Shown here one piece after another: positions 2,099 to 33,800 of a DNA stretch of 40,659 nucleotides; positions within the stretch are counted from its first letter, which is position 1; each line of letters starts with the position of its first letter. The DNA is taken from NCBI GenBank assembly GCA_001724265.1, contig MEDY01000283.1, positions 1-40,659 on the forward strand, given 5' to 3'. The DNA comes from Rhizaria sp. SCN 62-66 (taxonomy: Eukaryota). The notes under the pieces are model-generated. The model had not been told where the DNA came from and did no database searches. It saw nothing but the letters and a program-made list of their open reading frames with translations. The translations under genes were made by a program, and so were the position numbers.

Positions 2099-5000
2099 AT
2101 GCTCGACACGCAGGGTCGGCGAGCCCGCTCTGATGAGGAGATTCAGGCCCAGATTGTTCGTGACACGGAAATTGCAGAATCAAATCCTCACAATCAAGAA
2201 GGAATACGCGCTAGGCGCCGCCTTGCCAATCTAAGCGATGCCGGCATGCACTCGCGCATGCGCCATAATGCAGTAAATTTCACCAAGGACAGACACGACC
2301 GTCTCTTACTGCGCGAGCGTGATGAGATCACCAGCCTACGCGACAGCGTTCCTGCGTATATTTGTGCTGTTGAGAAGCTTACTGATGCACTTTTACTTGA
2401 GAACAATGACGTTTGTACGCTAACCGCCGCGATCAACGTTGAGTGTGATGCTGCTGCTGAAGTTGCCGAGTGCGTGCGGGCTGACAACGTTATCGCTTGC
2501 TGCAACCATACCAAGAGCAAAAACAGCGCGTTCATCCTACAAGAAGGTGCTGAGATCCACCGCAGGTCTTCAGAGCGGGTGCGCACATATGCAGCTATTA
2601 TTAGCAAGCTTGCTGCGCTGCTAACAAGTGAGTGTGATTGCCGCACAGCGAACTCTACGCTACTTACTGAGGCCAGTACCACTCTCACTAGCACAGTCAG
2701 GGGCTCTATTGCATTCAGTGACTACCGCGCTGCCAAAATGAAGGCCATTGGCGAGTCAGCGATTGTAAACGAGTGTGCTGTTAACGCTGCCGCGGATAGT
2801 AAACCGGTATACGAGCGTGTGATCGAGGCTACGCGCACAACAGCAGACGCTGTGCGTCACGCCGCACAAGCAGCTGGAGCTCTTGTTGAGAGCTACAACA
2901 ACAATGTGGCTGCATTGAAGAGCTGTGCTGCTGCGCATGCGGCTGCATCTAATGTGATAATGGAGGGCGCACGCGCTCGCATGCCAATAGACGCTCAGGG
3001 TCGACGTAATAGCTATATCTCCAACGACACTGAGAAAGCAATGGCTATCATCAGCGAAACCGCTGTGAGTGACGAATGCAAGAAGGCGCATGTTGCGATG
3101 GGAACTGCTATGATCAACAGCGCAGCAGCACGCGCAATGGTGGCTGCTTCAATTGAGCACAGCGTAGCCGCTGCCATGGCTGAGTCTGACACGCACAACA
3201 TTACTATTGTCGCGCGCCAGAACCATGCCAACATCATCCCTCTCCTTGCACAGGCCCGCGTCGACTGGGGCAGTGCTTATGTTATCAAGGCAGCCGCTGA
3301 GGCAAACGCAACACATCTTAAAACAAACATTAATAACGTCACACGCAAGCCCCTTGGCATTGAGATGGTTGCAAATGCACGTACGTTCAACTGTAGTGGT
3401 AACGAGCTTGTCACTAGGACGCACCACATGTCAACAATGGCACTCTCGCTGCGGACTTTGACAAATTCGCGTGTGCTGGCCGTGGAAAATATGTATAAGG
3501 AGATGAAAGTTAACGCTGTACAGGAGATTTCCAGCCAGAAGGTACGTGAGTACAATAAGGACATGGCGGGCAAGGCCATTTCCAAACATCACGACGATGT
3601 ACTGCCGCATCATGCTGAGATTGTGGCGCGTGGGACGCCTGGTGTATTTGGTGAGGAGCAACAGATTCACACTCAGCACGGGTTCATGCATATTGCACGT
3701 GTGTATCACAAGCTGCAGCAAGGCGAGGAAGTGTTCGCTATGTGCTACGACACTGAGCTTAAGAAGGCTGTGTACAGTACCTTGCGCGTGAGCCAGTATG
3801 CTGGTCCCGCAAAGACTATGTGCATCCTGACTGCAGAGAACGAGAAGCGCCGCTGGCTTCCCGACGCTAACCGCTACGGCCAGACTGAACACTCAGCTGA
3901 TGACAGTAAGTCGCATCCACAGTCAAACTTTCTCTCCTCAGTGGTCTCTGATGACCTCGCCGTGTACGCGCAGATTGGCGTTGACTCAGCCCGCGGTGGT
4001 AAGTTTCATAGTGACTACCCGCACTAGGCGATCGCTGCTGGTGCCTTTGTTGGCAGTGACACTACTTTGTTGCGCATGCTGAGTGCTGCACCAAACGGTT
4101 ACGAGCCGCCACAGGGCTGCCCGTTCCGTCGTCAGTTCCTCGCTGAGATGCGCCGGCTGCGCTGCAAGAACGCAGCCAAGCGTCACCTCTTCCTGGAGCT
4201 GCTGGGCATGTGGCTAGGTGATGGAACTATGGGCTACAGTAACAGTCGCCGTGCTGTTCTTTTTGTCCAGCGCAAGGAGCGTGACATCAGCTTCATCCAA
4301 CGTACGCTATCTGCACTTGGCATCAAGCAATGGAAGGGTAGCAAGCAGCCTAGCCGTGACACTCACGGCTGGGCCATCTACAAACCTAATTGGTTCAGCT
4401 TTTTTGACCGCTACTTTGGAGATAAGTATAAGGAGGGTGCCACTGGCCAAGGAGTGCAACAGCGCGAGAGCCCGAAGAGCGCCAAAGGGGCGCTGCCTGC
4501 CTTTCTCCTCCTTGGCCTTACCAAGGAAGAGTCCAGGCTCGTGCTCAAGGGTCTCTGGCGTGCTGATGGTCAGAGTGCCGGCACAGGAGCGAATAAGATT
4601 TACACCAGCTCACGTGTGTATGTTGACAACATCCTGCAACTTGCGCAAAACGGCGGATACGGCGCGCGCTTTAACTTATCTCACCCCAAGGGCGCGTGCA
4701 GTGGGTTCACAATTGATGGAAGAACATACAGACTGCGTGAGTACGCGGAGCTGCCTCTTGAGATCAAGGCGGCAGCTAAGGCAATCGTTGCCACTGTGGA
4801 CGGCTATGCAGTGTGGTTTTCAGACGCAGTTAGCGGCAACACACTGTATCCTGCTATGTCGAGCAGCAGCATAGTCACGCGGAGGAGCTGTGACCGGGAC
4901 CGGCTTTGGGTGGTGGAGGTTGACCACACTGATCACATCGTTCTCACGCGCCGCGCCGCTGTCACCAGTATCAAGGGCAGGCGCGTCGTTTTCAAGGCCT

Positions 5001-13640: not shown

Positions 13641-16600
13641 ATGGACATGCGTATACATAGTCTACGCGGACAGAACGTGATGCATTCTCCCAACAGCTCG
13701 ACAGAGGTTGCCCCACTGATGTTGTCTTCGAAGTTCCCTCGTCACCTGCCCATGTTCATGCACAACAAGGCATAGAACTTGCGCGAAAAGCTGCTCAGGC
13801 AAGCTAACGCGGTGTACAAGCACCGCTTTGAGCTTTTACAAGACCCGTACGTTCACTCCTACATGCACACTGTCTCCAACGCCAAACCACCACAACTTGT
13901 TTTTCAAGTTAACGTCGTCCTCAATTTCGGCATGTTTTAGCCGACATAATGTAAAATGGAATGAACTCAAATCCCAAACACCATACTCTGAAATTATTCA
14001 TTTTTACAATGGTAGACGTCGAATGTCACTCAACTATGTTTCTGGGATGATTACTTCAAGTGGCATGTTCGCGGAGAGTACATTTCTTGAAGTCTATCTT
14101 TATAGTTACTCTTAAAATACCAATCGTCCAAATATGCAGGCTTGTGTTAAAAGATGCTTTCTCATGTGTTGCTCAATTCATTTGCTTTCTTTTCTGTCAC
14201 ACAGCCATGCTTCAACGGACATTATGGCGCTTGTCGAGCAACATGCAACTCTGCTCACGTTCCTCGCTTCAGCACCGCTTCATGAGCCCTCGGCGGTTGC
14301 CCGCGCGCACCGCGAAATTGCCCGATTTGCGCGTGCCCATCCGACGCTGTTTGCGCGCACGGCGTTTGTCTCCGCACTCCGCACGAGCGACGTTGTCATT
14401 GTTCTCAGCGGCATAACCACTAACGAGAGCGTTCAAGCGGATGGTATCAGTTCCAGTGACGAGCTAAGCGCAGAACTGTCGCAGTACGTTGCTGAAACGA
14501 AATAGCTTCGCGATAAAGCTGTGTTTTGCGCGCTGAGGAGTGATGATGCTGTAGGGCGCATTGCGGCTCGCGTCAGTAAGCACTGGGGGGAGGGGAACAA
14601 GCAGATTCCCATGGTTCTTGGTAGCAGAAGCCAGGCTGGTGATGACTATGAAAACTCTGTTAGTTCACACACCTCCGTAGTCTTAGTCACGGAGGAGTCT
14701 GCGGCGCAGCAGCTCTCGAAACAGCCATCCACCCACTCATGTCATCAGCCACAGCATTCATTGCTGTCGTTGCAACAAAGCCTTCATCACACGCGGCTAC
14801 GTGTGTCCTCTTTGCTGATGCAGCATGCACCACAGTCACGCCTTGGCCACTCCGAGCCGCACCCCTTTATGCACTCAGAGTTGCCCAGCCCGTTCACCGA
14901 TCAGCAGCACCACTGCTTGAAGTCTCCGGTTGCTTACCTTTCTTGCGCACGCACCGTGGCCGTGTGCCCTTTACAAACACGCCTGATCTACGCTTCCAAG
15001 ACAACTGTCCTTAGCGCTTTCTATGCGTTTATTGTCAAGTCGCTCCAATCTACTTACGACAGCTCTCGCGCTCATCCGATGCTTGCACAGAACAGAGTCA
15101 CCTCTCGCGGTGCCGTGGTCTCTGGTGCAGTCTTGGGTTGCGTGCTCTTAGATTGCGAGTTGCTTCTGACTCTTCCAGGTGTTGCACTTGCTAACATTGC
15201 TGCCGTCAGCGCGGGCCGCGGTGTGCGTGTAGTGGTTGTTGCCCGCAGCGACGCAGAAGCGTCCGAGTTAGAGGCGCTGTTTACGGCCGCGGGAGCGCGC
15301 GCGCTAGCTGCTGACTGCCTTACAGCTGCGGCCGAAACTGCCGACATCGCCACACCTGTTCGCTTTGGCGCGCCTGTGCGGACTGTGGTGCCAAGAGAGT
15401 TTGTTGTCAACCGCGTAACACTGCCTCGTTGTGCCAGCACAGCGGCAGGATTGAAGGAGACATGTTCTTTTCCCACTAGCAACGGAGACGACAGGGCAAA
15501 CACTAAGCTTATGCAGAGCTCTGATTTCGCAAAGCGCTTCCAGGTTTTGTCTCACGCTGCAGCGAGTGAAAAGAACGGCTTGGCTAAGCGCCTTTCGGGC
15601 TTGCCCAGCGCAGCAAGTCTCCCGACATCGCTTGCGCCGCAGTCACCTTTAACACACGCGTCATTCGTGCTGCCAGAGTCTCAGTCACACACACCTGAAC
15701 AGCTCCACGGACTCACCGCGGTTAGGCGCGTGGTGTTACCGCCAATCCCCACAGACGCTTGCTCAAGCTGCAACGCCGTTCACTGTGATTGCGCGATCAC
15801 CAGCCTTGATAACAACGGCGAGGATGACGACGGAGCTACGCTGGTATTTACTGCTAGCGACAGCGACAACAAAGTCAGCACTCCCAGCTCTCATCGCTGT
15901 ATCTGCGCAATTGGTGGCGACTGCAGCGACTGCGCGACACGGATTACGACAGAATTTGCTCGTTCACTCAAGCGACTCAACGATCCAGCTCCGACTAACA
16001 GCGACAGCGATGGGGTGTGCGGCTGCGGCGCAAGACGCTGCGAGGGTGATTGTGAGTTGTCATTTGCCGCTTCAGGCCATCTCCCGTTGGCAATCTCAAA
16101 CAGCTTTGATGCGTGGGCACTTGCCGGTAGCCGTAGCTTTGGCGCATGTGAGACGGAGTGCGGCAGCAACAGTGGCGTGTTTGAGACGCAACGCAACGCA
16201 AGCCAGTCGTTTGACAGCGTTGCAGGGTATCATCTTCCTGCAGTTAACACTGAGGTTGAGGGCAGTGTGCGCAGCAGGCGTGCTATGACTATTGTGCACA
16301 ACGACAATAGTGATAGCGATGACGATTGCGTGCACATGAAGTGGAATAGCAAGAGCTTTGAGCTGAGCACGACAGAAGCCCCGCCGTTTACCGTTTCATC
16401 TTCAGCAAAGCCTGTGATGGCTACAGCCACGGCTGCCCCAGTAATTACAGCACCGTGCAACTGGTCGGTACGTGATGTCGTGCTTACAGTTACAGCACTC
16501 TTACCCTGGGTCCGCGCTGTCTACTTACCTCAAGCTGCCGGTGCACAACGGCACAATCCCACCTTGTCTTCTTGTTGGGGTTGGTCAAGGGATGTTGTCA

Positions 16601-17934
16601 AGACTGCGACGAACGAGCTTGCTGTCTTAGGTGCAATTGCTGAGGAGGAGCAAGTTAGTGTTGTCGACACATTTTTTGCACGCACCTACAACATTGCATC
16701 AGAGCTTCAAGGTCAACAAATGGCTCCAATTTCAACAGTGAGCGTAACCGCCGCCGCTAAAGCAGCTGCAATTGCATCCTTGAACATCACTTCGTCTCCA
16801 GTCACCGCGGTTTCCTTGACGGGCGCTCTGGCCCTAACTGCAGGCTGCTCTCTTGAGGTCGCACGCATTGCACTTGCTGGTTGCGGTGCGCATCCGCTCG
16901 CGCCGGTGTCCACTGCCCTGCTTCTCGCTGCGCTTGTTCACACACAGCAAGAGTGCGCCGCTAGTGGCAACGTCTATGGGTTAGGTTATGGCAGTTTATA
17001 CAACTCACTGCAAAGCGTGACAGCGTGGCGTGACACAAAGATCGCTCTAGAGTCGGCGCCGCAGGGAGACAACGAGAAGAGAGATGCAACCGCTGCAGCG
17101 GCAGCTAACGTGTTATCATGTATCGAAGAACGCTCAGGCATTTCATCCACAAGCTACGCTAAGATCTTGCGTACTGAGCGACATTTCGAATCTGCGCTCA
17201 ACCAGGCGCTGGGCTGCTTTGGCGTTTCAATGGCAACTACGGCCGCTGCATCGCAAGTGACGGCGGGTGCTGTGGGCAGCTGCATTGCGTACGGCTTCTT
17301 TATGAACGCAATGCGTCGCGTTACGCCACGCTGTGTCGACACTGACGCGCTCACGCTTGGACTCCGACGCGCGAGGTTTGCAGCATTCACTCCGCCGCTA
17401 AACACAGGCGCAAAGACTGGAGCACGCGCGGTCAGTGTGCTGGACTGGCGCAAGCGCGCGTACGGTGACATAAACACGTCGCCCACGTCTAACATGGCAG
17501 CGAGCTCAACTCTTACAGATGCAAGCAGTATGTAGATTCGGACACCGTCACCGATGGGCAACTGCCGTTGCCATGCACATTTCCAAGTTGAGACCGAACA
17601 CACTGCAGCGCTGGGCGACGCAGACAATTCAAAATGGGCTGTGTATACAACTGCGCGTGTGCACACAGTCAACACATATGAGTCAGACTTTGTGGACTGC
17701 ACGCTGAGCGACTGCGAGCTATGCTTCGAGGGAGAGCGCGGACTGGTGTTAGTCGACACGTTTACGCCAGTCACACTACAGGACTTGCTAATAGCTGCTT
17801 CACAAACGACATGCGCATCTTCAAAAACACATTTGGACAGCCATGTTTCTTGTGATACAAGCTCACAGACAGAGCGCCACCTTAACGCGGTGCACGAACA
17901 TTTCGTGCGCTGTGATAGTTTTATCTACATTTAA
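13641..17934 (+). CDS. Hypothetical protein (~1310 aa) with Cys-rich clusters; probable exons 13641-13846 and 14205-17934; three internal in-frame TAGs
   Basis: ORFs 14134-14505, 14521-17535 and 17554-17934 share a frame, broken only by TAG 14503-14505 and TAG 17533-17535; the gene ends in TAA. GTACGT donor 13847 and CACAG acceptor 14204 join FELLQDP|HASTDIM in frame. The upstream exon has TAG 13773-13775. The 5' end is uncertain. Confidence 0.65.
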
Positions 17935-18352: not shown

Positions 18353-21300
18353 TTAAGGCTTCCACCACATCCATCCCTGCGCGTCAACAGGCCAGAACCG
18401 CACACCAACGGCCATCTCGTTCAAGTCTTCACTGCGACGCCATCCACTGTTGCTGATCTTTCGCCCGTGCACACTCTCAGCACGCGTTACATCCAACGTG
18501 TTCGCGCTATTTCCGCTGCCTAAGCCCTCTGTCTCGACACGGGGGTCGGTGCGCGGACTCCATAGCAGCGGCCTGCGCTGGCCCGCGCGCGTGTCAAGCA
18601 TCGGCACCAGCGCGTCCGTGCTCCCCGCACAGCCCACGGCGCGCACCGAGGTACGCGCCTTGTTGCGCGCCCAAAGCTTCGTCTTCATCGCGTGGCCATT
18701 GCGAATTATGACATCCCCGCCGTTGCGCAAACGCGCGATGGCGAGAGCCCGCGCCTCCCAAGCGTCACCTGCGGCTGCCCTAGTTGCAGCGACAACGGCG
18801 GCGGTCTCGCGCGGTCCGGCCAGCCGCACGCGCACAACAGCGCGGTCCCTACGCGGCTGCTGCAGCGCTGTACGCGTGACGGTCAGCAGCCAACGCCGAG
18901 CAACAAATGCGCGTGCAAGAGACGGAAACTGGGGTGCGAGCACTGCATCCGGGACAGTCACAGTTCGGTCATCAAATGCATTACTCTTCCAATAGGCAGC
19001 GTGAGTAGCTGCATTGTCAGTCTCTGGCATACGCGCTTCAGCGGCGCTCAGCGGACGAATCACTAGCATAAAGTCAAGCTCTTTCGCGTTGCTTAGACTC
19101 TCACAATCGGAGTTGTCACTATTTTGCGCCTCAGCGGGGAGTGCTGAGATGTGGCAGCCGTGAACAATGCGGGCGCTGCGAAGCGAATTCGCGGTATCGG
19201 ACTGCTTTTTCTTTTTCTGTTGCCGATCCGCATCGCTTGCATTAGTACTCACATAGTCATCACATGTATCTGTACCGTGATCGTTTTCGGCTTGCGGCAG
19301 CTTCTGGCTCCACTGCAATCCATCAGCGCGCAGCAAGTGGGAGAAAAAGTGAGTTCGGAGTGCTGACACAGCCTCAGCACGCGGTTGGGTCGCGGCTGCA
19401 GCGACAACTGCAATCGCCCGCGACAGACAGCCTTCAAGAAGAGCTGTTGATACAACCGGCTTTTTCACTGATGTTGCCCCAGCTTCAACATTCGGCGGCG
19501 TCTGCGCAGCAATTGCGTGCAGCAGAGCGCGCGCAGAAATGAACACATGCCCATGCGGCGACACAACCACAGAGTGTGCAGACAGCAGAGCGCCAGTGGC
19601 GGCAGTGAACGCTGCAGCGCGCCGCGAGAGAGCAGCCACGCCCGCCGTGAGCGTCGCCGCAACAGCATCATGACTGCTCTCACGCACAGCCTCGGAAGTG
19701 GCAGCGCTGGCCGAGGCGCCGGCGTGTTGCGGAATGGTCGACGGAAAAAGCGCGAGGCGAGCGCGAACTCGATCAAACGCGAGGTTTGCGTTCGAAGGGT
19801 CTTCAACCCACTTCGACTGCACAGTGCGGGTGCCATCTGCGTCTGAAGCGCTTGCATTGCAGTCAGACTCGTCGCTGCGCAGACTGTAACTGCTAAGTGG
19901 TGATGACGTTGTCAACAACAAGCGACCGTCAGAGGCCCACTGCGCATGCACAACAACTGCACTCACATTGCCATTGTCAGTTGCAGTATCAGAGTCTGAG
20001 TTGTAGGCGACATGAACATTGGGGTCATTGCTAAGCATGCGCACAATCCGGTCTTCAAGAGTTGCGATGAGACGCTCTTTGCTAAACCCAAGGAGCGGCC
20101 GTAACACGCGCACGCGCGGCAACACACCCGCGCTCTCGCCACCACCACTATGACTGCCGGAAACACCACCGTAGCTCTCTGTAGCACTCATCGTCGCCGA
20201 GACCGCGCGCGCAAGCAGCGCCGGCTCCCGCGCTGCAGCGTACACGAACCCCCCGTCCAGCGTTCGCGGGGTTAGCGCGCGCACCCGCGTCGGCGCAATC
20301 ACGGTTGCGCCCGCGACAGCGACTGTGGCCGCGGCGGCGGGGCCTGCGAGGCCAGGCAGCGCAGAGCCACGCAGCAGACGCATCAGAGTCGTTTCAACGG
20401 CGTCCCCGCTGTGGTGGCCTAAGCACAGCGCCGGGAGAGCGCTGGTCACGCTGCGCTGCGCAACATCTCCCGCTATTATGGAAGCCGTTGTTGAATGCGC
20501 CGCCGCTGTCGCTGCGGCCGCGGCCACGTTAGCATCCGCAGCTGCGGAGTCCGCAGCAGTGCGCGCAACGCGGGCGCGCAGGATAGCGGCCCGGGCGGCG
20601 GGCGACGGCGACGCTGCACCAGCAACAACAGCAGCAGCCCCTGCGACAGAGCTATCTGACTCAGCGACCGCACTGTTGTTGCGCGGTAGCGGAGAGTACT
20701 GCGGATACAAGACCCTCGCCTCGGCCTCTGCAGCTTCGGCTGCAGCGTCAGCGGCTTGACTAGCCTCCGCGGCCGCCGCCGCAGCAGCGGCTGCAGCTCG
20801 CCACAGCGTCACAGCAGCGGCGTCAGCGGCGCGGGACTCAGCAATAGCATCGCCCGCGGCTGCGGCTGCGGTGGCGTTCGTGTCGGGCCCTGCAGCGGTG
20901 AAGTCAGCCGGGTCAACCGCGCTCTGCAGATGACTAGGTGCAGCATGTGCTTGACTGCAAGACGACTGCACGTAGCCATGAGCATCATGGTTAAGCGCTG
21001 GCTCAATGTAGACTCCCCCGTCGACGAATGCGCTCACCACACGGCCCTGTGACAGCGATTTACTATGGGCAAGCGTCTCCGCTGGCAGTATGTGGCCGCT
21101 GTTGCTGTCGCTATCCGGCAGCGGTTGCGGCTGCGGCTCCGGCAACTGCGCCGCATACAGTTGACGCGGCGCTGGCGACTAGGACGCAAAGGGCGGCGGC
21201 GGCGGTGTCACAATAAACGGCAACAACGCGCTGTCATCGTCAGTGGCACTCACGGCCCTGGGAGCCACAGCAGCGTCAGTGCTGTCAAATCTGTCATCGT

Positions 21301-22366
21301 CGTCAGACAACAAGCGATGCGACGTGGCGGCGTCTTGTTCTGCGCGCTCCAAACGCTCTGAGCGCTCTGCGCGGGCTGCCGCCACCGTCGTGTATCGGTC
21401 AGGCCGCGCCTCGCCCTCCCCTTCCAGGCCTTCACCAAACTCGTCCTCGGGCTGCTCACTCGCTGCCCCAGTCCGCTGCAGCCACTGCCACTGGCGCTGC
21501 CGCCGCCCGGTCCGGCTGTGCTGGCCGACTTGCGGCGCGCGCTCCTCCGGCGTGGCGCGCGGCGGCCGCGGCCAGTGGAGCGCACACACGTGCTGCAGCA
21601 GCAGCGCGCGGCGCCGCACGCGGGCCGCGGACTGCAGCGACTTGAGGCTCGGCCGCGGGGGCAGAGCGGGCGGCGCCGCAGACCGTGCTGTCGCTGTCTG
21701 AGAACGGGACGCTTGGTCGTCTTCTGTAGCGCTGTCCGCGTTAATGCTGCTCACGCTCTCGCCCCACTGCATCGCGAGAACGTCGGTCTGGAGGCCCGCA
21801 GAGCGCAGGAAGCCCGCGACGGCGGCCGCCTCGGCGCTAGCCTCCGCGCGCAGCCCGTGGTCGACGACGGCGGCCCTTACACTGGCTAAGGGTACGCAGC
21901 TGTGCGCCCATTCGTGGAGGAGCAGAGCCAGGGCGAGGGAGTCTGCGCCACCAGAGACTGCGGCGACGATCAGTGGTGGAATGTTGCTGTTGCTGTTGTT
22001 GCGTCCAGCGTCACTGGTGTTCGAATCGTAGGAAAACAGCGCAGTAAGAGCCTGCGCAAACTCTTGCGGAGTAATTGGGGCGGCTGCCTGCAGCGTAGCT
22101 GACGGCACTAACAGCGGCGCGGTTTCACGCTCAGCGGCAGCGGTTACAGTGTGGGCTGCACGCGTCGAGTGAGAGTACACCTGGCACGGCAGTTGGCGCA
22201 GGGAGGGAGGCGAGGACGCAAGACAGCGGAATGACGCACCCAGAGAGCTGGATAGCACTCCGCGCCTGTTAATTCTAGTGGAGGGGTCCGTCAAACTGCG
22301 TGGTGCACTCAGAGTGACGATGGAGCGCGTTGCGAGGCGACGCGCCACAGCAGAGACGCGCAGCAT
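18353..22366 (-). CDS. tilS: tRNA(Ile)-lysidine synthetase (TilS/PP-loop), probably mitochondrion-targeted, ~1337 aa, one internal in-frame TAG
   Basis: AVSGGADSLAL, VDHGLR and QSAARVRR lie before TAG 21179-21181. GHHSGDAVETTLMRLLRGS, LRPLLGFSK and WVEDPSN...FDRVRAR lie after it in the same frame. Arg/Ser-rich, acid-poor N-terminus MLRVSAVARRLATRS. Ends TAA. Confidence 0.9.
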
Positions 22367-22734
22367 CAGGCAGTTGATGCAGCGCTTCACGACTTGGCGC
22401 GATTTTTCAAGCTATAAAGAGGCAATGAAAACATGACAGACAAATAATAGTTAACAAGCAAATGGACGTCTAAATCTGCCCCCAACAGCCGTTAATATCC
22501 ACGAATTGTTCGAGTTGGCGATAATTATCTTTTCTGATGGAGTGTTGAGGTGTGAGCCCGCCTCTTGCGAGTCCACTTCCACATTGTGTGTCACCTCACA
22601 CCATCCGTAAATATCGATATAACAACAACCTTAAGTTGTATATTTATCGCGAAATCTTGAATCCATTTTTCAATTTTAATCTAACTTTGATTGCCATTCC
22701 CCACACTCATTTTTATCTCCCCCAGTGGGGACTC
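22367..22734. promoter_or_regulatory. Putative bidirectional promoter region between tilS and MCM9
   Basis: 368-bp AT-rich spacer between two divergent ATGs. Inferred from position only; no motif identified. Confidence 0.45.
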
Positions 22735-25700
22735 ATGAGCTTCGCGCCACCTCACGGTCCCGGCGCAGGCCGCGGCGGCACCCCAGCGCCCCCACACCCC
22801 GGCCCGGGAGCACTTTACGGCGGAACACCGCGCGCCACGGCCCCCGTGCCCGTCTATATCCAGCCGCAGTCTTCACAGCAGCCCTACGGCCCGCAGCAGC
22901 GGCCGAGTCTGCATCAAACCCAGTCCCAGCACTCCCAACAGCAGCAGACTTCCTCTTCGTCGTCTTCGTCACACTCGCTGTCGCAGTCTCAGTCCCAGTC
23001 ACAGTCGTATTCGCAGTATGGATACTCCCAGCAGCCACATGTGCCCCAGTCCCCGCATCAATTTCAGCACCAGCACCCTGCACAGTCGCCGATGCAGCAG
23101 CTGCCCACACCAATGAAGCAGTCGCCGCTGCAAACGCCACTGCAGACGCCGCTGCAGACGCCACTACACTCGCAACGGCTGCCCTACGTGCAGACGCACT
23201 CGTCCGCTGCGCCGCAGCTCTCGCAGCAGCAGCCGCCACCGCCGCCGTCTCAGCGCCAGCGGGACCAGCACTCGTGGTCGCCATCCCTCTCGCAGCGGTC
23301 GCAGTCGCAGAGCTACGCACACGCGTCGCCGTACGGCAGTAGTGCAGGCGTAGTTATCAGTGATGACGACTACAATGACTACAGTCTTAACTCTAACAAC
23401 GATGCAGGTTCCAGTAGCGGCGGCGTGAATCCTTTCGCTCGCGTGCACACCCGCAACCCCCCTGCGCCGCCCTGTCCCCAGCCCCTCCCCAGCAGCAGCA
23501 GCAGCGGCGGCCCTTCGCATAACACTGCACCGACAGCAGCAGCAGCAGCAGCGCCGGCGGCGGCGAGTAGCGCGCCCCTGTTTGTGCCGTCCCCGCTGCT
23601 GTCGAGCTACACCGCGCCCTTCGCGCCGCCGCTGGGCTCCGTCCCCGCGCAGGCCCGCGCGCAGCTGGGCCCGCCGACCGCGCCCGGGTACGTCGCGCGC
23701 CTCAACGAACTGCTCTTCGCCACGGCGCCGCCCGCCGCGGCGGCCCCGCCTCCCGCCGCGGCCATATTGCGCCACGCCGAGGTGACCGTGGGCTCGTTCC
23801 AGCAGTTCTTCGCGGCCTACCTCGTCGCGCACCAGCCCGCGACGCTGCGCGCGCTGCTGCTGGCGCCGGAGCCGCTGCAGTACCACCGCCTGCCGGTCTC
23901 GGTGGCGCAGCTCTGGGCCGTACATCCGCCCGCGGCGCGCGTGCTGTTGGACCACGCCGCCGCGCTGCTGCCCAAGGTGCTTGGCGACGCGGGCTTCGAG
24001 GCGCAGCAGGTCTTCCGCGAGATCCTCAATGCCGAGCACGAGCGCGAGTGGGAGCTCGCCGTGCTTAAGCTCCAACAAACGCACCATCAACAGCAACAAA
24101 GGCAACACGAACAACAAAAGCAACGGGATGGCTTCGGGTTTGCCGCTCCGGACTTTCCTGCCTTTGCCGGGGCCTCGCTCGTGCTGCCGCCGCGGCCGCA
24201 GCTCATCACGTCGACGGACCTCAAGGTGTACCTGTCGCCCGCGCTGTACGCCGTGCCACCGCTGTACCCCTACTTCCGCCCGCTTTTCTCCTCCCTGCGC
24301 GCGCGCGACCGCGACCGGCTGGTGGTCACGCGCGGCGTTGTCACGCGCGTGGAACCCGTGTCGGCGATCGAGGGCGTGCGCGTGTACCGCTGCGACCTCT
24401 GCGGGTACCGCTTCAATGTGGAGCCGCGCATCGACCACGGCGCGTCGCCGCCCATGCCCAGCATCTGCCCCTCGCGCGTCGCCGCGCAGGGCGACCTCAC
24501 CGGCGCCATCACGGCCGCCGCGGCCGCGCGCGGCGCCGGCGCGGACGACGACGACCTGCTCGCGGCCGCCGAGGGATACGTTTATCCCGCCGCCCCGCAG
24601 TCTCAGCCGCAGTGGGGGCGAGGCGGGAAGAGCCGCGGCCGGCAGCGCGGCGGCTCCGGCGCGGGCGGCGGTGGTGCGGACGCGCCGAAGCTGTGCAGCT
24701 CGCGCATCTTCTCCGTCGATGAGAGCTCGCCCGTGTACAAGCGCGACTTCCAGCGCGTGCGGCTGCAGGAGCTGCCCGTCTTCAACAACAACGGCGGCGG
24801 TGGCGGCGGCAGCGGCGACGGAGACGGTGACAGCGGCGGCGGCGGCGGCGGCGGGCGCGTGCTGCCGCGGTCCATGGTGATGATCCTGCAGGACGAGCTT
24901 GTGGGCACGGTGCGCGCGGGCCAGCGCGTGGCCGCCACCGCGCTCGCACTGCGGCAGTGGGATACGCTAGTCCCGCAGCAGCGCACCGACATGGCTTTCG
25001 TGCTGCTGGCCAACCACGTCGAGGTGCTCGACGCCGACGCCGCGGCGCCCTCGGTGACGCGAGCCCAGCGAGCGCGCGTGCGTGAGCTCTGCGTGACGCA
25101 TCGCTACAGCCCTATGCAGCTGCGCGCGCGGCTTATCGCGTCCGTGTGCCCGCAGCTCTGGGGGCTCGCCGTCGAGAAGCTGGCCACGCTGCTCACGGTC
25201 ATCGGCGGCGTCGAGCGCGACGACTCGCTGCCGAGCAACAACAACAACAGCGGCAACAGCGCGCACATGAACAGCCTCACGCACGACGGTGGCGCAGGCT
25301 CCCAGTCCGCCGGCTCCGGCTCGGGGTTCCGCGTGCGCGGACAAAGCCACCTGCTGCTGATCGGGCCGCCGTCGATGGGCAAGTCGCAGCTGATGCGCTT
25401 CGCGGCGCGCCTGGCCCCGCGCGCCGTCACCACCACGGGCACCGGCTCCACGGCTGCGGGGCTCACCGCGAGCGTGAGCATGTCCGCCGACGCGGGCGTG
25501 GAGCCGGGCGCGCTGGTGGTCGCCAGCGGCGGGCTGTGCTGCATCGACGAGTTCGGCACCGTGCGCAAAAGCGAGCGCGCGGCGCTGCTCGAGGCCATGG
25601 AGCAGCAAACCGTCTCCATCACCAAGGGCGGCGTGAGCGTGCTGCTGGACGCCAAGACCACGGTCCTGGCGACTCAGAACCCGCGCGCGGCGGACGGCAG

Positions 25701-28700
25701 CTGCAGCTATGACGCGGGGGCCGACATGACCACCAACACCGGCATCGAGCCTCCGCTGCTGTCGCGCTTCGACCTCATCGCCATCATGGGCGACCTGTCG
25801 GGTAAGGACTGGGATGCCCGCGTGACGCGGCATCTGCTCGACTCGCTGCCCAGGCCTGCTGTTGAGGACGTCGAGGCCGCGGCCGCGCACGTTAGCGCTG
25901 CCATCACGCGCGCGCACGCCGCCAGCGCTGCGAACAATGACTTCAGTGACGGTGCCGCTGCTTCTGCGATGGCCGGCTCTCCGATATCTCCGGGGCCGCA
26001 CCGCTACAACAACAATACCATGAACAACGGCGGATTCACAACCCCACAGCAAAGCAGCCACAGCCACACGTCGTCTGCGTCCAACAGCGCACTTGCCAGC
26101 TTTCGCACGCCTGGTGGCTTCACGAGCCCGACGGCGGCCGCTACCGGCGCTGGTGCAGCGCCGCGGGTGGAGACGGTCGAGGAGGCGCACCTCGCGGACC
26201 TGATGTCGGAGCTGGCCCTTGCGCGCAACAGCAGTGCCCGCCCTGGCGGCAGCGTCGGCGTCGGCGGCGCGCGCGCAGGCCCGCTCTTGCCCGTATCAGC
26301 GGCGAACGCCCACGCCCTCGGCCTCGGCTCCGGGCAGTTCGGTCCATTCTCGCCGCAGCCCGGCCAGCGCGCCGCAGTGTCGCCCGCGTCGTCGCTGTCG
26401 CGCGCGTCCGCCAGCGCGCGCTCGAGCCCCGCTTTGCTCTCGCCGGGCGCGAGCTCGCTATCGCTTGCCGTTCCCTCTGCAGTCGCTGGCGGCGTGGACC
26501 CGAGTCTGGCCCTGCGCGGCGGCGCGGTAGTCGCCGTCGCGGCGTCGCACCGCATCGTCAACCCGGGCCGCGAGGGCGAAGCCGCCTTCGATAGCGCAAG
26601 TCAGAACAGCGATAGCCCGCCTGTGCACGGCGGCGTCAACAGGACGCCGGTCGCGGGCATGCGCACGCCTGTTGGCGCTGGCGGCCTTAACGCGGGCGCT
26701 CACCCCGGTTCTTTCAACCAGCAGCGAAGCGGCGGCGCTGCAGTGACACCATCCTCCGCGACGCAACCACACTCGCGCTTCAACCCGCCTACATCGCAGC
26801 ATCAGACGCAACAATCGCCGTTGCCCGGTGCCGATGTGAGACGCGATCGCGAGCCGCGGTATCTCGTGGAGCCCGCGCAGCTGTCGTTCAACATGCTGCG
26901 GTCATACCTGCACTACGTGCGCACTCACCTGCGCCCCACGATCTCCAAGTGGGCGTACGAGGTCCTCACACGCTACTTCCGTCTGCGGCGCGAGCGCGCG
27001 CGGTTCCAGGCGCCCGCGGCGATGTCGTTCGTGACAGTGCGGCTGCTCGAGGCGCTGCTGCGGCTGACTCAGGCGCACGCGCGGCTGCTGGGCAGCGCCG
27101 AGGCGCGGCTCGTCGACGCCGTGAGCGTTGTCCTGCTGATGGAGCACCTGCAGGCGGGGCAGGAGCACGGCGGCCACGTCGCCGGCGGCGGGCTCGACCC
27201 GCAGTACCTCGCGCTGCGGCCGCCGCGGGCGCCGCGCTCGCCCGCGCCGTCACCCGGGCAGTCGCAGCTCCAGTCGGTGCATCCGCTGTCACAGCAGGGG
27301 TGGCGCGCGGTCACTCGCGCGGGGTCGGTGGCCATGCTCGCGCGCACTCAGTCGCACATCGACAGCAACAGTGCCGCTGGCACCGCGCGTGATGACTACG
27401 CGTCTGACGAGTCGGTCGGCCCTCCCCCCGTGCCCGCGCGCTCGCTTTGCCCGCCCGCGCCCAACGGCCTGGCCTGGGACCCAGACGCGGCCTACCTCCG
27501 CGACGAGGCGACCGTGCTTGCGATGCTCGGCCTGGACCCCGCCGCGGTGCCCGTACGCGAGCGCCTGCCGCTCTACCCGACGGACCCGCGCTGCCCGCCG
27601 CACCGCGAGCCGGGCGCCGCGGCCGCGTTCGCCGCCGCACTGCATGGCGCCGGCGCAGACGGCGCACCCGCGCTGCAGCAGTCGGCCGCGCTCATGGGCG
27701 TGTCGGCCGACGCGCGGCACGCGCGCACCGCGCTCACGGTTGCTGCGACTGCGGCGGCCGCGTCGTCGGCGGCCGCGGCGCAGGAGCGCGCCCGCGCCGC
27801 GCGCGCGCTCGAGGACCGCGTGGAGGGCGAGGCGTGGTCCGCGCTGCTGGCGCGCGTCGAGGCCGCGGAGAGGGCCGAGGAACTGTCGTGGCGCGCGCAG
27901 AGGCACGCGGACGCGCTCGCTGCGACTGAAAACGACGACTTGAGCGACGCACGTTCTGGCTCTAGCTCTAGCGTGAACAAACCTGGTGCGAGTGCGGCTG
28001 CGAGTACTGCTGCCGCCAAGGGTATTGGAGGCGTGTTTGTGGCGGCAGCGTCGACGTCATCTTCTGTAGCTGTAACTGCTTTGCCACGGGCTGCTCCGTT
28101 TAATACGATGCAACACAACACCCGAAATGATAACATGACCAGCATTAACACGGAGACCGTGGGCATGAATGCAGCACGCACAAATACTGACGCTGCGACG
28201 AGCAGTACGAGTGTTGCCAGCGCTAACCCCTGGGGGAATAGCGCAAGTTTCAGTCGTAATCCTGCTGAGCGAAATGCAAATGTGCATGCGTCCGCAGCTG
28301 CCCCTGGTGCACACGCCGCTGCGGGCGCGAACCGCCCGCTCGCTATGATCCCTGGCTTCGGCGGGGGCGACGCAGCTGGCTCTGCCTCGGCCGCTTCGGA
28401 CTCTGCGTCCACGAGCGCAGGCGCAAGTGTGAGTGTTGGTGGCAGTGTCGCTCGTATCGTAGCGGGTGATGCAGACTCTGTCATTGGTGCTAACGCATCG
28501 AGTCACGATGCAGCGCGATCAACCACTGCATCAGCTGCACAAGTGCCGCCTTACGCTGATGCCACGAGCGCTCAGGCGACTGCAAGCCGCGCCAATGTGA
28601 CTTTTAGCCAGTGGAACCCTGCGCCGTCGGCCCCTGTTTTCGCCCCATCGCAACAACAACAGCAACTTCACCGGCAGTCGGACTCGGCCGACGCGCTGTC

Positions 28701-30429
28701 ACCGCAGTCGTCGCAGCCGTTGTCTGACGACGCGGCTGTTGCTCGCGGTCGCAAGGCGCGTGTACTTTCTGATGACGACGATGAGGCCAAGGAGACCCAC
28801 AGCGCTCTGCTCAGCAAGAGCACTGCGAAGCATAAGAAAGCTCCACAGCGCGACGACAGCAGCAGCGAGAGTAGTGATTGTATTGTTGACGACGACGACG
28901 ATCAAGACGACAGCGACGACGATGTAGATGACGGTCTCAGCGACTTCAAGCGTGAACAGCGGCGGAAGCGTGATAAGAAGAGCAAGCGCAACAAAAAAGA
29001 CGAACGCAGAAAGGCCAAGAAGGAGAAGAAACACACTGATAAGCGTTCCGACAAAAAGGCCAGTAAGAAGGACAAAACGGACAAGAAGGACAAGAAGACG
29101 GACGTAACAGCCGACTCTTCCGCATCAGCCACCGCGGCCCCTGCCGCTTCTCACTCGCCGTCGGCGCTGCGCAATGCGTCCGCGGCAGTTTGGATTACCC
29201 GCAGCTCCAGTGCCGTCCCCGGCCTCAGTGATCCCGCTTCCTCCGCCGCCGCGGCTGCCGCCAGTGCTCTTGCCGTCAACCCTGCGCCCGCGCCGCCGCG
29301 GCCTGTGGCGGTGCCGGCGTACGCGCCGCAGTTCTCGGCCGTGACCGCGCGCGACCAGGCCCGCCATGCGCGCGCGAGCGCCTTGAGCGGCGTCGCACTG
29401 CCCGAAGCGTATCCACAGACGCACGCCGCCGCGCGCGAGCGCCTCAGCGCGTCCACGGCGTCCACGGCGTCCGCCGCGTTCGACGCTGCGGGCGGCGACG
29501 GCGACAGCGCTGCTGCCGGCGCCGACGACTGGAGCGGCGGTCAGCTGCCGCTGACGCAGTACGTTGCGTCCCACTCGGCCACGCCGCGCCACACGCCGCA
29601 GCGCCAGCAACAGCAACGTGAACCGCAGCACGCGTGGATGCCGCGCGCCCCCGGCCGGAGCCCCACCGCATCCAACGGCGGCGCGACCGCTGGCGCTGCT
29701 GCTGCTGCTGTCACCAGTGCGTCAATCTGGACGGCAGGGGCGGTCACAGAAGACGGCCCGCGGATCACTACTCCCAGCCGACCGCGACCGCCTGTGCCAT
29801 CAATGCTGCCTGAAGGCGACCGCGACTTGACCACATCATTAGCCTTAGCGGCCGCGAATGTAGTTGGGCAGTTGGCCGACAGTGAGAGATTGTCTGGGTC
29901 TGCAACGAAACGCGCTCGCTTAGCGTCAGGTCGTATTGCCAATCCCAACAGTGATAGCTATTGCCAGGAGAGCGAGGGCAGCGTTGCTTGTCTCACGACG
30001 GCCACGGACGCCGCGACCGCAGTTGTGGGCAGCTCTGTCGTTCAAAGTAACAGCAGTGCGATAAGTAGAGGTCACGGGGGATCCCAGTGGCAGTTTGGCG
30101 AGAGCCTTCACGGCTACGGTGCTTTGCTTAGTGGGAGTCACAGTAACAACTCTACCGCTGGTATTGACCGCAACGTAGACTCGACGCATAGCAGCCAGTC
30201 TAGTCATGGAACCAGTCAATCAGAGCAACGTGGCGCCGCAACTGCTCTTTCGCATCCTGCAACGACGTCAGCTGCGACCAATAATGCTGTTGTACAAGTT
30301 AGAGGCACAACGACTGCGCTACCACACGGGAATCAGGTGAGTAGAAGCAACAACCATAGCAGCAGGGGCGGGAGCAGTGGTGACCTCGATATATTTGCGC
30401 CACCAAAGCATCTTGCACCACGCAAGTGA
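22735..30429 (+). CDS. MCM9: DNA helicase MCM9 (MCM8/9 family), ~2564 aa with long disordered extensions
   Basis: Zn finger CDLC...CP...C; RDFQRVRLQE; LQDELVGTVRAG; RGQSHLLLIGPPSMGKSQ (Walker A); TTGTGSTAAGLT; GLCCIDEF (Walker B, MCM9-type IDEF); EAMEQQTVSI; LLSRFDL (Arg finger); TVRLLEALLRLTQAHARL. ATG at 22735; ends TGA. Confidence 0.9.
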   Translation: MSFAPPHGPGAGRGGTPAPPHPGPGALYGGTPRATAPVPVYIQPQSSQQPYGPQQRPSLHQTQSQHSQQQQTSSSSSSSHSLSQSQSQSQSYSQYGYSQQPHVPQSPHQFQHQHPAQSPMQQLPTPMKQSPLQTPLQTPLQTPLHSQRLPYVQTHSSAAPQLSQQQPPPPPSQRQRDQHSWSPSLSQRSQSQSYAHASPYGSSAGVVISDDDYNDYSLNSNNDAGSSSGGVNPFARVHTRNPPAPPCPQPLPSSSSSGGPSHNTAPTAAAAAAPAAASSAPLFVPSPLLSSYTAPFAPPLGSVPAQARAQLGPPTAPGYVARLNELLFATAPPAAAAPPPAAAILRHAEVTVGSFQQFFAAYLVAHQPATLRALLLAPEPLQYHRLPVSVAQLWAVHPPAARVLLDHAAALLPKVLGDAGFEAQQVFREILNAEHEREWELAVLKLQQTHHQQQQRQHEQQKQRDGFGFAAPDFPAFAGASLVLPPRPQLITSTDLKVYLSPALYAVPPLYPYFRPLFSSLRARDRDRLVVTRGVVTRVEPVSAIEGVRVYRCDLCGYRFNVEPRIDHGASPPMPSICPSRVAAQGDLTGAITAAAAARGAGADDDDLLAAAEGYVYPAAPQSQPQWGRGGKSRGRQRGGSGAGGGGADAPKLCSSRIFSVDESSPVYKRDFQRVRLQELPVFNNNGGGGGGSGDGDGDSGGGGGGGRVLPRSMVMILQDELVGTVRAGQRVAATALALRQWDTLVPQQRTDMAFVLLANHVEVLDADAAAPSVTRAQRARVRELCVTHRYSPMQLRARLIASVCPQLWGLAVEKLATLLTVIGGVERDDSLPSNNNNSGNSAHMNSLTHDGGAGSQSAGSGSGFRVRGQSHLLLIGPPSMGKSQLMRFAARLAPRAVTTTGTGSTAAGLTASVSMSADAGVEPGALVVASGGLCCIDEFGTVRKSERAALLEAMEQQTVSITKGGVSVLLDAKTTVLATQNPRAADGSCSYDAGADMTTNTGIEPPLLSRFDLIAIMGDLSGKDWDARVTRHLLDSLPRPAVEDVEAAAAHVSAAITRAHAASAANNDFSDGAAASAMAGSPISPGPHRYNNNTMNNGGFTTPQQSSHSHTSSASNSALASFRTPGGFTSPTAAATGAGAAPRVETVEEAHLADLMSELALARNSSARPGGSVGVGGARAGPLLPVSAANAHALGLGSGQFGPFSPQPGQRAAVSPASSLSRASASARSSPALLSPGASSLSLAVPSAVAGGVDPSLALRGGAVVAVAASHRIVNPGREGEAAFDSASQNSDSPPVHGGVNRTPVAGMRTPVGAGGLNAGAHPGSFNQQRSGGAAVTPSSATQPHSRFNPPTSQHQTQQSPLPGADVRRDREPRYLVEPAQLSFNMLRSYLHYVRTHLRPTISKWAYEVLTRYFRLRRERARFQAPAAMSFVTVRLLEALLRLTQAHARLLGSAEARLVDAVSVVLLMEHLQAGQEHGGHVAGGGLDPQYLALRPPRAPRSPAPSPGQSQLQSVHPLSQQGWRAVTRAGSVAMLARTQSHIDSNSAAGTARDDYASDESVGPPPVPARSLCPPAPNGLAWDPDAAYLRDEATVLAMLGLDPAAVPVRERLPLYPTDPRCPPHREPGAAAAFAAALHGAGADGAPALQQSAALMGVSADARHARTALTVAATAAAASSAAAAQERARAARALEDRVEGEAWSALLARVEAAERAEELSWRAQRHADALAATENDDLSDARSGSSSSVNKPGASAAASTAAAKGIGGVFVAAASTSSSVAVTALPRAAPFNTMQHNTRNDNMTSINTETVGMNAARTNTDAATSSTSVASANPWGNSASFSRNPAERNANVHASAAAPGAHAAAGANRPLAMIPGFGGGDAAGSASAASDSASTSAGASVSVGGSVARIVAGDADSVIGANASSHDAARSTTASAAQVPPYADATSAQATASRANVTFSQWNPAPSAPVFAPSQQQQQLHRQSDSADALSPQSSQPLSDDAAVARGRKARVLSDDDDEAKETHSALLSKSTAKHKKAPQRDDSSSESSDCIVDDDDDQDDSDDDVDDGLSDFKREQRRKRDKKSKRNKKDERRKAKKEKKHTDKRSDKKASKKDKTDKKDKKTDVTADSSASATAAPAASHSPSALRNASAAVWITRSSSAVPGLSDPASSAAAAAASALAVNPAPAPPRPVAVPAYAPQFSAVTARDQARHARASALSGVALPEAYPQTHAAARERLSASTASTASAAFDAAGGDGDSAAAGADDWSGGQLPLTQYVASHSATPRHTPQRQQQQREPQHAWMPRAPGRSPTASNGGATAGAAAAAVTSASIWTAGAVTEDGPRITTPSRPRPPVPSMLPEGDRDLTTSLALAAANVVGQLADSERLSGSATKRARLASGRIANPNSDSYCQESEGSVACLTTATDAATAVVGSSVVQSNSSAISRGHGGSQWQFGESLHGYGALLSGSHSNNSTAGIDRNVDSTHSSQSSHGTSQSEQRGAATALSHPATTSAATNNAVVQVRGTTTALPHGNQVSRSNNHSSRGGSSGDLDIFAPPKHLAPRK

Positions 30430-30834: not shown

Positions 30835-33800
30835 TTATACTGAGCCGCCATATGCAGACGCAGTCTCGTCGCTGCCACCGGCGCTGCTGCCCGTCGTTTC
30901 GCTGCTGCCCGTGACCGAGGACGCCGCCGTCGACGACGCGTCTCCCTCGGCGCCCGGCGGTAATAGCGTCTCGAGCGGCTCGACTCCGAAGCACCGCGGT
31001 ACCTTGCCGGCCGCCATCTCGGCGAGCGTCGCGTCGCGCGTCACAGCGTGCATCGTCGCCACGAACCGGTGGCGGTACACGCTGGGTTTCACCGCGCTGA
31101 TGCCGCGCCCGTCAAGACACATGCCGTAGGTCTTGAGCAGCGACTCGCAGCGCTTCGACGCGTCGTACGCAGTCAGGATGTCGATGATACCGAAGAAGTA
31201 CGCCAACGGTAGCTCGTGGCCCGGAGACCCACCGACGGGGGCAGCGACGATTGCGCCTGCACTCGCACTCACTGCAGTCGTGACTGCCAGACCGGTGGCT
31301 ACGGCCGCGGTGCGCGATGACAGCGCGATCGGCGCTGCGTTGCTATTCGCGCTGGTGGCGCCGCTGCCCGAGAAGTTAAGCAGTGGCGGCAAGTATTTGC
31401 CCACGGTCCTCAGGCCGGTTTGTAAGCCTGTGGCGACACCACCAGCAAGTCCCCCCAGGCCACCGCTCGCGCCCTCGGATGCGGTTGCGGCGGCTGCAGC
31501 CTGCGCTGCGGCCTCGGCCTCCGCGGCGGCGAGCTCGGCGGCGGCCTGCGCGGCCTCTGCATCGGCGGCGGCCTCCGCGTCCTGCGTCGCGATAACAGCG
31601 GGGTAGCCGACGGCCTCTGCGGCCTCGGCCTCGGCCTCAACCTGCTTCTCGATCGACAGCGGCGACGGGCGGCCCGCTGCGACGATGACAGGAGCCTGAG
31701 CAACAACTGCAGTCGCAGCGTTTCTGCCAGCCGCAGCCTGTTGCTGCTGCTGTTGCTGCTGCTGTTGCGCGGCGGGCTTGGGCCGCTCGCCGCCCCAGTG
31801 CAGGCCGAGCAGGAGCGAGTAGTCCATGACGCCCAGCTCGCACAGGAACGCCGAGTCGCTCGATACAGCGTCGAGGAAGAGCCGCCGCGTGTGGGGCTCC
31901 ATCACGACCGTGTGCGCAAGGTTGTTGTCCTTGCCCAGCCCGACGCGGTCCGGCGCGGGCACCGCGGCCGGCGCGAGTCCTCCCAGAGCAGGCACGAACT
32001 GACCGGGCGCGCGACCGCGGGTGCTCGTGGGAGAAACGGCACGGGCGCCGGCCGCAGTGATTGTGAGCGCAGTGACTGCGGCAGGGGAGACTGCAGCGGT
32101 GTCGTCCTGGGCGGAGAGAAGCGACAGCGATAGTCCTGCTGCCTTGTCCTTATCGATGGGGTTCGTTGCCGCAGCGGTGTTGGCGCGAGAGCGCGCAGCG
32201 TTCATGCGCACGTGCGCGCCGCCCGTCTCACCAGCCGCAGCACCCGCGCTGCCTGCGTTAGCAGCCGCAGTGCCAGTAGCGGCGGCGGCGTGCTCTTCGG
32301 CCTCCGCATCGGTGGTGTCGATCCCGCTCGAAGACGAAGATGAAGCCGCAGCAGCGGACGCAGCTGTGGATTTGCTATCGCGGCCGCGGCTCTGCTCGGT
32401 GTCCGCAACAGCAGACGCAGTCGGAGCAGCAGCAGCGCGTGCGGCAGCGGCCGCGCGCGCGCGTTCACGAGCATTCATGGGCCCTGCATTCGTGCCCGCC
32501 GCCGCCTCATTGATGCTGACGTTTGCCGCTGCATTGCTCGCAGTGTTCGAATTCATTGCAATGCCACCGTTCTGATCCGTGAAACGGGCGTACCCACCAC
32601 TACGTCCGCGCGCATGTGCTTGCGCATGCAGACTCGCATTGCTGCCACCGTAGCCGCCGAACCCGCCCGGAGCTGCGCCAGCGCGCCGGCCCTTGCCCTT
32701 CTTGCCCTGCGGCCCCGCATCAATGCCGGAGGGCCCGTCCGCAGACCGCGCGACCCAGGAGCCCTTGATGTCGTACCGTTCCTGCACCAGCAGCATGCTC
32801 GCGTCGGCGTCCGCGCCGGCGCCCAGCAGCGCGGCACCCAGCGCAGCGGCCTCGGCCTCGGACGCCGCGCCAACGCCCACGAGCGCACCGGGCGCGCTCG
32901 ACAGCGCGGCTACGGCGGAGACAAGCGCCTCTGCGGACACCGGCCGCGGCACAGTGCCCAAGACTGAGCTCTCGCCCGCTGGCGCGATAGCTGTTGCACT
33001 CGTGGCAGCGGCAGCGGCGGCGTTGGCGCGCGCGGTCGCGGTGGCAACGGTGGCGGCGGACAGCGCGGCGGCAAGCGCGTTGGGTGGCCGGCTGAGCCCG
33101 ACAGGCAGCGGGAGCGATGCAAAAGCTGCATCAGCGCGCGCGGCCGCGGCGGCGTCGCCCGACTTGGCTGCGGCGACAGCGGCGGTGCGCGCGGCGACCC
33201 AGCGGCGCGCGGCCGAGGTGACCGTGGCCCAGTAGCCGGCGCACACGCGCAGCCGCTGCGCGCCCGAGAGCGCGAGGCAGTTGGACATGACGAGGAAGTG
33301 AATGTCGACGCCGTAGAGGCGGATGCGGTGGAAGCCGTAGATGCGCGTGAGCAGCGTAACGCGGCGCGTGAGCAAGTGGTGCGTGTACGCCGGCAGCATC
33401 ATGAACAGCGTCGACGCTTCGCTGTGGTTCACGGACTTGACGATCATCTTCTGGTCTTCAGAGAAGTAGAAGAATGACCCGGAGCGGCCTTCGGTGAACT
33501 TCTCCATCATCGTCAGCGTCTTGCCCTGGATTGACGCGACGTACTCTTCGTCGCTCACGCCGCCCAGCGCGCGCAGCACGCGGAACACCTGCGGCGCGAA
33601 GTCAACGAACGGCGCAGACGTCGCGCTCTGCTCAGTCGCGGGCTGCGGCTGCGGCGCTGCCGTCGCGGACGCACCCAGATCACTGCTCTCGCTGTCGGTG
33701 AGGGGTGACGCGGCGTGCGAGCGCTTGTTCCTGCCGCCGCCACTGCGCGCGGGCTTGGCGCCCACGACGGCGGCCATGCGCTCGGCGCCGCGGAGCTGTC

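Follow-up and report, generated by a model that had tools for sequence, protein, structure and literature searches.

Probable reassignment of UAG to glutamate, with UAA and UGA kept as stop codons, in the nuclear code of Rhizaria sp. SCN 62-66

Changes in the meaning of UAA and UAG nearly always go hand in hand, and the rare departures from this rule serve to probe their coupling. UAG alone is reassigned in the nuclear codes of the rhizarian exLh (to Leu) and of Iotanema spirale (to Gln) (PMC5304391), and in those of phyllopharyngean ciliates (Leu or Gln) and Scotinosphaera (Ser) (PMC11687900). Glutamate (Glu) is the meaning of UAG in Oligohymenophorea sp. PL0344, in which UAA specifies Lys (PMC10553269), and of UAR, that is UAA as well as UAG, in Blastocrithidia and peritrich ciliates (PMC12153298, PMC11687900). 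The subject of this analysis is a contig of 40,659 nucleotides (nt) from an organism deposited as Rhizaria sp. SCN 62-66 (MEDY01000283.1, assembly GCA_001724265.1), and in particular its tilS-like gene, which is crossed by one in-frame TAG; the whole contig is referred to below as the window. The assembly, of 34.9 Mb in 714 contigs, is that of a eukaryote. In its nuclear code UAG very probably stands for Glu, with UAA and UGA still acting as stops, through a CUA tRNA derived from tRNA-Glu and an altered eRF1. This version of the code, in which both other stops are kept, appears to be undescribed: no description of it was found in the titles and abstract openings searched, a coverage outside which most subscription journals lie. 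A 2025 study reportedly describes UAG as Gln in the heterolobosean Dactylomonas.

A sequence-only reading of the window had proposed that UAG is translated, and had taken the tilS-like gene as the strongest single test of this. Translation of UAG is supported by genome-wide evidence from the continuation of open reading frames (ORFs), kinase loci, eRF1 and a CUA tRNA. The rank given to tilS does not stand, its TAG lying in a non-homologous insertion and possibly in an in-frame intron. Decisive instead are three other loci, the genes for eRF1, for a NIMA-like kinase and for the CUA tRNA, all of which point to Glu; tilS is a supporting example of the recoding and not its key test.

The behaviour of the three stop codons was counted in 882 kb of fetched DNA from 137 loci, with 15 overlapping or ribosomal DNA (rDNA) loci excluded, an ORF of at least 200 codons being taken to continue when at least 100 open codons follow its stop in frame. 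By this measure 17/28 ORFs ending in TAG continue, as against 3/77 for TAA and 3/49 for TGA (6/126 for these two pooled; Fisher p=8e-11). Three of the 17 (tilS, L043 and L071) had been fetched for their TAG; without them the count is 14/25. TAA is the commonest ORF end, and the long genes of the window terminate in TAA or TGA. Inspection of nine of the 11 TAG-ended ORFs that do not continue shows that at least three end inside introns, that one runs into a phosphatase-like motif, and that in three a TAA or TGA comes 8-19 codons after the TAG, an arrangement that fits sense or stop; these three apart, which suit either reading, no clear use of TAG as terminator was seen among the nine.

The kinase loci agree. 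Stops are contained in 14 of 142 kinase matches and include TAG in 11 of those 14; the TAGs in these 11 matches comprise five in exons, four at intron 3' ends and two inside introns. The TAA and TGA stops are intronic in all four loci inspected (one further locus was not fetched). TAG is also the 3' splice site, and caution is therefore needed with apparent in-frame TAGs: six that seemed to lie within domains (L067, L068, L074, L075, L152 and L153) were rejected as intron 3' ends, and two more (L069 and L070) as intronic. Exons of this genome are GC-rich and introns AT-rich. Of 80 stretches scanned against Pfam (70 of 136 candidates, and 10 added), only three gave a domain, and many of the candidate stretches are antisense frames.

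The gene for eRF1 itself carries a TAG, in frame and before the catalytic domain (L109:1117-1827, minus strand, contig C63). This codon aligns without gaps with human E107, in a column that holds E 109, D 10, V 1 and Q 0 among 120 homologues. Only one eRF1 was found in the genome (the other match is Pelota-like by reading), and metagenome contig L155 is identical to it over 1,626 bases, TAG and introns included. Relative to human eRF1 the protein has the substitutions T32S, M34V, G57S, T58K and K130Q, of which T32S and G57S occur in 0/120 homologues and T58K in 1/120 (P0004); the NIKS and YxCxxxF motifs are retained, as is S70, which is a difference from Blastocrithidia and the peritrichs. A bond links T32 to the G of UAG, and the GTS motif change is T32G in Iotanema where it is T32S here (PMC5304391). 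The dependence of eRF1 on its own UAG may be a coincidence or a form of feedback. Stops also occur in an unrelated, divergent contig that resembles an eRF1 transcript (L168:84-797), at positions occupied by Gln in its near twin L169, which suggests another recoded eukaryote.

As to the residue encoded, the NIMA-like kinase L066, picked because its site was the likeliest to favour Gln, has an 84%-identical orthologue (P0236) with Glu at the position of the TAG. In a UBE2J-like protein (L054; the query carried E at this column) the TAG column is D 89, E 23, N 13 and S 12 of 150, so that D and E together make up 112/150, and Q is outside the top seven. The PDB match of L043 has Tyr at the TAG position, which is unconserved. 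When nine residues were tried at six in-domain TAG sites, the summed Pfam scores were 442.5 bits for E, 440.9 for K, 440.7 for Q, 439.3 for D and 437.6 for S, followed by A (435.9), Y (432.9), L (430.2) and W (428.9). A code of the sainouroid exLh type, with UAG as Leu, was rejected: Leu is second lowest of the nine, 12 bits down over the six sites, and the CUA tRNA does not have the long variable arm of the Leu type, its variable loop being of 4 nt.

That tRNA is encoded on nuclear contig C84 (L106:1489-1561, minus strand); its gene is intergenic, 73 nt long and followed by a T-run. The pattern that located it permits CTA or TTA anticodons and gave three matches at two places, one of them this tRNA; no UUA-anticodon tRNA was returned by this consensus search, which can miss atypical tRNAs. 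(The list of tRNAs is incomplete, because tRNA(CUA) is absent from the 63 scored of 506 candidates.) Among 46 distinct fetched tRNA sequences its best match is tRNA-Glu(CUC), identical at 47/73 positions, with which it agrees in acceptor pairs 1-5 and throughout the T stem. It also has U11-A24, U13-G22, A46 and no base 47, all of which are Glu elements of the E. coli tRNA (PMC9976931); at position 46 the organism's tRNA-Gln has U.

The tilS-like gene is read from the minus strand; on the plus strand at the coordinates that the sequence-only reading assigned to it (20390..21955) the reading frame is closed. The order of motifs then described, with SGGADS and DHGLR before the TAG and HxxDxxET..RGS, RPLL and EDPSN after it in one frame, is confirmed on the minus strand. 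The coordinates hold for SGGADS and DHGLR and are too narrow for RPLL (20101-20090) and EDPSN (19804-19790), which lie outside them. The parts of the gene are as follows.

18353..22366, minus strand: tilS-like gene, 1,337 codons and TAA if the TAG is read, start placed according to P0122
22202..22366, minus strand: Arg/Ser/Leu-rich, presequence-like N-terminus of about 55 residues
21938..21955, minus strand: PP-loop motif SGGADS, upstream of the TAG
21848..21862, minus strand: DHGLR motif, upstream of the TAG
21590..21643, minus strand: degenerate helix weakly matched (-1.4 bits) to profile columns 99-116, the final homologous block ahead of the insertion
20447..21589, minus strand: low-complexity insertion of about 380 residues containing the TAG, a gap between adjacent profile columns 116 and 119
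21179..21181, minus strand: in-frame TAG, codon 396 of the tilS-like gene, putatively Glu
20363..20416, minus strand: HH..D..ET..RGS box, downstream of the TAG
20090..20101, minus strand: RPLL motif, downstream of the TAG
19790..19804, minus strand: EDPSN motif, downstream of the TAG
18353..18355, minus strand: terminal TAA

One frame extends over 22411-18353, with the TAG at 21181-21179 as its sole internal stop, joining ORFs of 410 and 941 codons. The PF01171 match is split by the TAG, with positions 2-73 upstream and 98-133 downstream, and against a profile of 40 bacterial TilS matches the five motif blocks (PP-loop, DHGLR, HH..D..ET, RPLL and DPSN) are all present and in order across both sides of it. 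In this respect the protein resembles TilS as defined by TIGR02432 and PF01171. It differs in being about three times the usual length, with low-complexity insertions within the catalytic domain that spread the motifs apart, and TIGR02432, its best NCBIfam model, scores 79.4 bits, under the curated cut-off of 93.6. PDB holds no match to it. The first 55 residues include nine Arg and one acidic residue, and we take this N-terminus to be presequence-like. The nearest named homologues are alphaproteobacterial TilS proteins; together with the Arg-rich N-terminus this makes the gene probably that of a nuclear-encoded, mitochondrion-targeted tRNA(Ile)-lysidine synthetase, and in both features it is like the nuclear-encoded mitochondrial TilS described in eukaryotes (PMC4558845). 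The possibility of an intact paralogue, raised by the sequence-only reading, was followed up: no second tilS copy is present among the PF01171 candidates of the genome, all four of which were scored, two being the halves of tilS and the others a CTU1/NcsA-like gene and a TtcA gene. The latter (L002, contig C116), of the tRNA 2-thiocytidine synthetase type, has a spliceosomal intron in this eukaryote; TtcA is mainly a prokaryotic enzyme.

Because the tilS TAG sits in an insertion without homologous columns, it cannot name the residue that it encodes. Moreover, an in-frame intron could take it out without touching any motif. Removal by a 33-nt intron had been foreseen as what would undo the argument from tilS; an intron candidate does exist, and the better one is of 75 nt.

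21179..21253, minus strand: candidate in-frame intron GTGAGT..TAG, 75 nt, GC content 0.61 (rival reading only)
21179..21211, minus strand: 33-nt candidate put forward earlier, GC content 0.73, nested in the 75-nt one

If the code is reassigned and this TAG is nevertheless the 3' end of such an intron, tilS is uninformative on decoding. The longer candidate starts with what looks like a canonical donor and is rich in pyrimidines at its 3' end, the enrichment of GTGAGT at GC-to-AT transitions is 3.2-fold, and the six intron 3' ends already mentioned had likewise passed for in-frame TAGs. An intron here is nonetheless distinctly improbable: the homology-anchored introns of this genome (nine found of 11 tried) are 134-204 nt long, with GC content 0.30-0.42 and GTAC or GTAT donors, and a contig from a polyA library (X1, 21196-21446) aligns over its full length, spanning both candidate donors, with no joint listed. 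The unbroken contig means that an unspliced form exists, which may derive from DNA in the library. Run X1 is labelled as an activated-sludge metatranscriptome and contains near-identical pieces; runs X2 and X4 have nothing useful at the TAG, and the joints listed are long skips between low-complexity stretches.

As far as tested, the tilS TAG is not an assembly slip. Proteins P0122 (four contigs) and P0234 (one contig) from other assemblies terminate at this codon, in records that are possibly not independent of the source of the window. In a diverged allele from run X3 (library type not on record) positions 21179-81 are unchanged, in a contig whose span is estimated as about 21142-21401; the same allele keeps the TAGs at 14503 and 17533 in another frame of the window, and the two tilS indels listed in it are both multiples of three.

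Several observations weigh against UAG as Glu. The closest homologue of eRF1, P0004 (84% identical), has Val at the TAG column, and in the Pfam sums Glu leads Lys and Gln by less than 2 bits, from six sites only. TAGs lie within Gln-rich tracts (twice in L062, and in L092 and L134), as is expected if UAG is Gln or if CAG-to-TAG changes are tolerated. U11-A24, U13-G22 and the missing base 47 of tRNA(CUA) are found in the organism's tRNA-Gln too, and the CUA anticodon is without the Glu determinant C36. TAGs near the 3' ends at L097, L151 and L074 could be true stops, and the searches with DEAD, ABC and kinesin families (43, 20 and 54 matches) gave zero exonic TAGs, the two TAGs met in the DEAD and kinesin searches being intron ends. 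For tilS itself, the X3 allele shows 18 differences, 6 synonymous and 12 non-synonymous, with no clear purifying selection, and no RNA record crosses the TAG, the nearest polyA contig beginning 15 bases away.

The Gln-rich tracts and the small Pfam margin (Gln is 1.8 bits or less behind Glu) would suit a code in which UAG is sense throughout the genome and read as Gln, as in Iotanema, or ambiguously as Glu and Gln. Amber tRNAs are often charged by glutaminyl-tRNA synthetase via U35. Charging with Gln is noted for E. coli amber suppressors (PMC9976931). Such a code is distinctly improbable in this organism, since Gln is absent from the eRF1 column and from the leading residues of the UBE2J column, the close kinase orthologue has Glu, and the acceptor and T stems of tRNA(CUA) match tRNA-Glu and not tRNA-Gln.

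A further alternative is that UAG is mainly a stop, leakily suppressed by one tRNA, and that the in-frame TAGs are mildly deleterious nonsense alleles, with tilS perhaps decaying. The rarity of UAG (17 in 114,030 codons, against 4,633 GAA/GAG, or about 0.4% of Glu codons, a floor because only ORF-ending TAGs were counted) is in keeping with this, as are the single CUA tRNA gene found, the sub-threshold TIGR02432 score and the near-neutral appearance of the X3 differences in tilS. What makes it highly improbable is that an essential single-copy eRF1 has its TAG ahead of the catalytic domain, and that at most two of 12 TAG-ended ORFs with coding-like ends (threshold 0.1) fail to continue, compared with 72/73 for TAA and TGA. 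The bases following 26 in-frame TAGs (G10 C10 A3 T3) are like those after GAG, without the bias of a readthrough-type context, and unlike those after TAA and TGA ends, which are purine-rich (73/89). Retention of three TAGs in the diverged X3 allele, and of frame across its tilS indels, also speaks against leaky termination.

With UAG as Glu, the codon would be decoded by tRNA(CUA), whose gene is observed and whose charging by glutamyl-tRNA synthetase is presumed from its likeness to tRNA-Glu. The observed T32S, G57S and T58K substitutions would make eRF1 recognize UAG poorly. The tilS-like gene would be one intact frame encoding a complete TilS, laden with insertions and carrying Glu in a disordered loop, and this protein would probably be imported into mitochondria and, going by its family, make lysidine on tRNA-Ile(CAU). 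It is possible, if rather doubtful, that the reassignment is young and perhaps still ambiguous, with a built-in eRF1 feedback, and that a relative with 84%-identical proteins forms a before-and-after pair with this organism. In such a feedback the sole eRF1 gene would need UAG to be read as Glu at codon 107, and residual termination at UAG would truncate eRF1 and so lower termination. P0004 and P0236, metagenome proteins 84% identical to the eRF1 and the NIMA-like kinase, respectively, point to a close relative, although the two are not tied to one organism; the relative shares T58K in eRF1 and lacks T32S and G57S, and neither of the sites compared, two in number, has a stop in it.

The other long frames of the window, and the TAGs within them, are these.

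2006-6001, plus strand: 1,331-codon frame with one TAG and a LAGLIDADG_3 match
4025..4027, plus strand: in-frame TAG joining ORFs of 673 and 657 codons within 2006-6001
14116-17934, plus strand: 1,272-codon frame with two TAGs, no Pfam family
14503..14505, plus strand: in-frame TAG in 14116-17934, unchanged in X3
17533..17535, plus strand: in-frame TAG in 14116-17934, unchanged in X3
22549-30429, plus strand: MCM-family helicase, 2,626 open codons, without TAG
30835-37833, minus strand: GPCR-PIP5K fusion with seven-transmembrane (7TM) and PIP5K matches and a weak PUA match, 2,332 open codons, long Ala-rich insertions

Residues ~545-1000 of the 2006-6001 product, around the LAGLIDADG_3 match, are presumably intein-like, judged by eye from their motifs; its host part matches no Pfam family. 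As in tilS, low-complexity insertions separate the conserved domains of the MCM-family helicase. GPCR-PIPK proteins are present in both Naegleria and Rhizaria (PMC5784254), and the fusion is therefore uninformative for placing the organism.

Only one 18S sequence was found. Its helix 17 bears an extra hairpin of 17 nt, and the sequence contains a vahlkampfiid primer site (primer sequence from PMC12811234); helix 17_1 in 18S is a mark of Tetramitia (Heterolobosea) (PMC12328842). This 18S lies on a stand-alone rDNA contig (C706; L035, L195 and L196) that also holds nine group I introns and three ORFs, among which is one confirmed His-Me homing endonuclease. TTTGGG-like repeats are seen at one end of C706. 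No ordinary nuclear gene was found on C706; the 18S may therefore belong to another organism, and its contig may be a passenger. The ubiquitin-junction pattern, run as a test for Rhizaria, gave no match. A search for tubulins yielded genes of gamma-, delta- and epsilon-like type together with a single broken alpha-like gene (identities by reading), and no intact alpha- or beta-tubulin; multicopy genes seem to be poorly assembled. The alpha-tubulin-like gene (L190, contig C172) is broken by frameshifts.

Set beside the described UAG-only codes, this one is alike in having UAG as sense, UAA and UGA as stops and a CUA tRNA from the cognate family, and differs in that the residue would be Glu. In Iotanema (PMC5304391) UAG makes up about 8% of Gln codons, compared with the ~0.4% of Glu codons here. 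PL0344 (PMC10553269) is alike in reading UAG as Glu with tRNA-Glu-like CUA tRNAs; UGA is its sole stop and it has ten of these tRNAs, whereas UAA is the commonest end here and one CUA tRNA was found. Blastocrithidia (PMC12153298) shares Glu at UAG and a tRNA-Glu(CUA), but in it, as in the peritrichs (PMC11687900), UAA is reassigned along with UAG, and in Blastocrithidia the change is tied to AT pressure. Reassignment in the present organism would have arisen in GC-rich coding DNA, unlike that AT-pressure route. Standard-code gene calling splits the organism's genes in two, as in entries P0122/P0233 and P0235. The genome offers the likely parts of the change together: one CUA tRNA, and three eRF1 substitutions beside the stop-binding motifs. 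If the reassignment is indeed young, the organism and its relative would provide a before-and-after pair for the uncoupling of UAG from UAA in a GC-rich genome.

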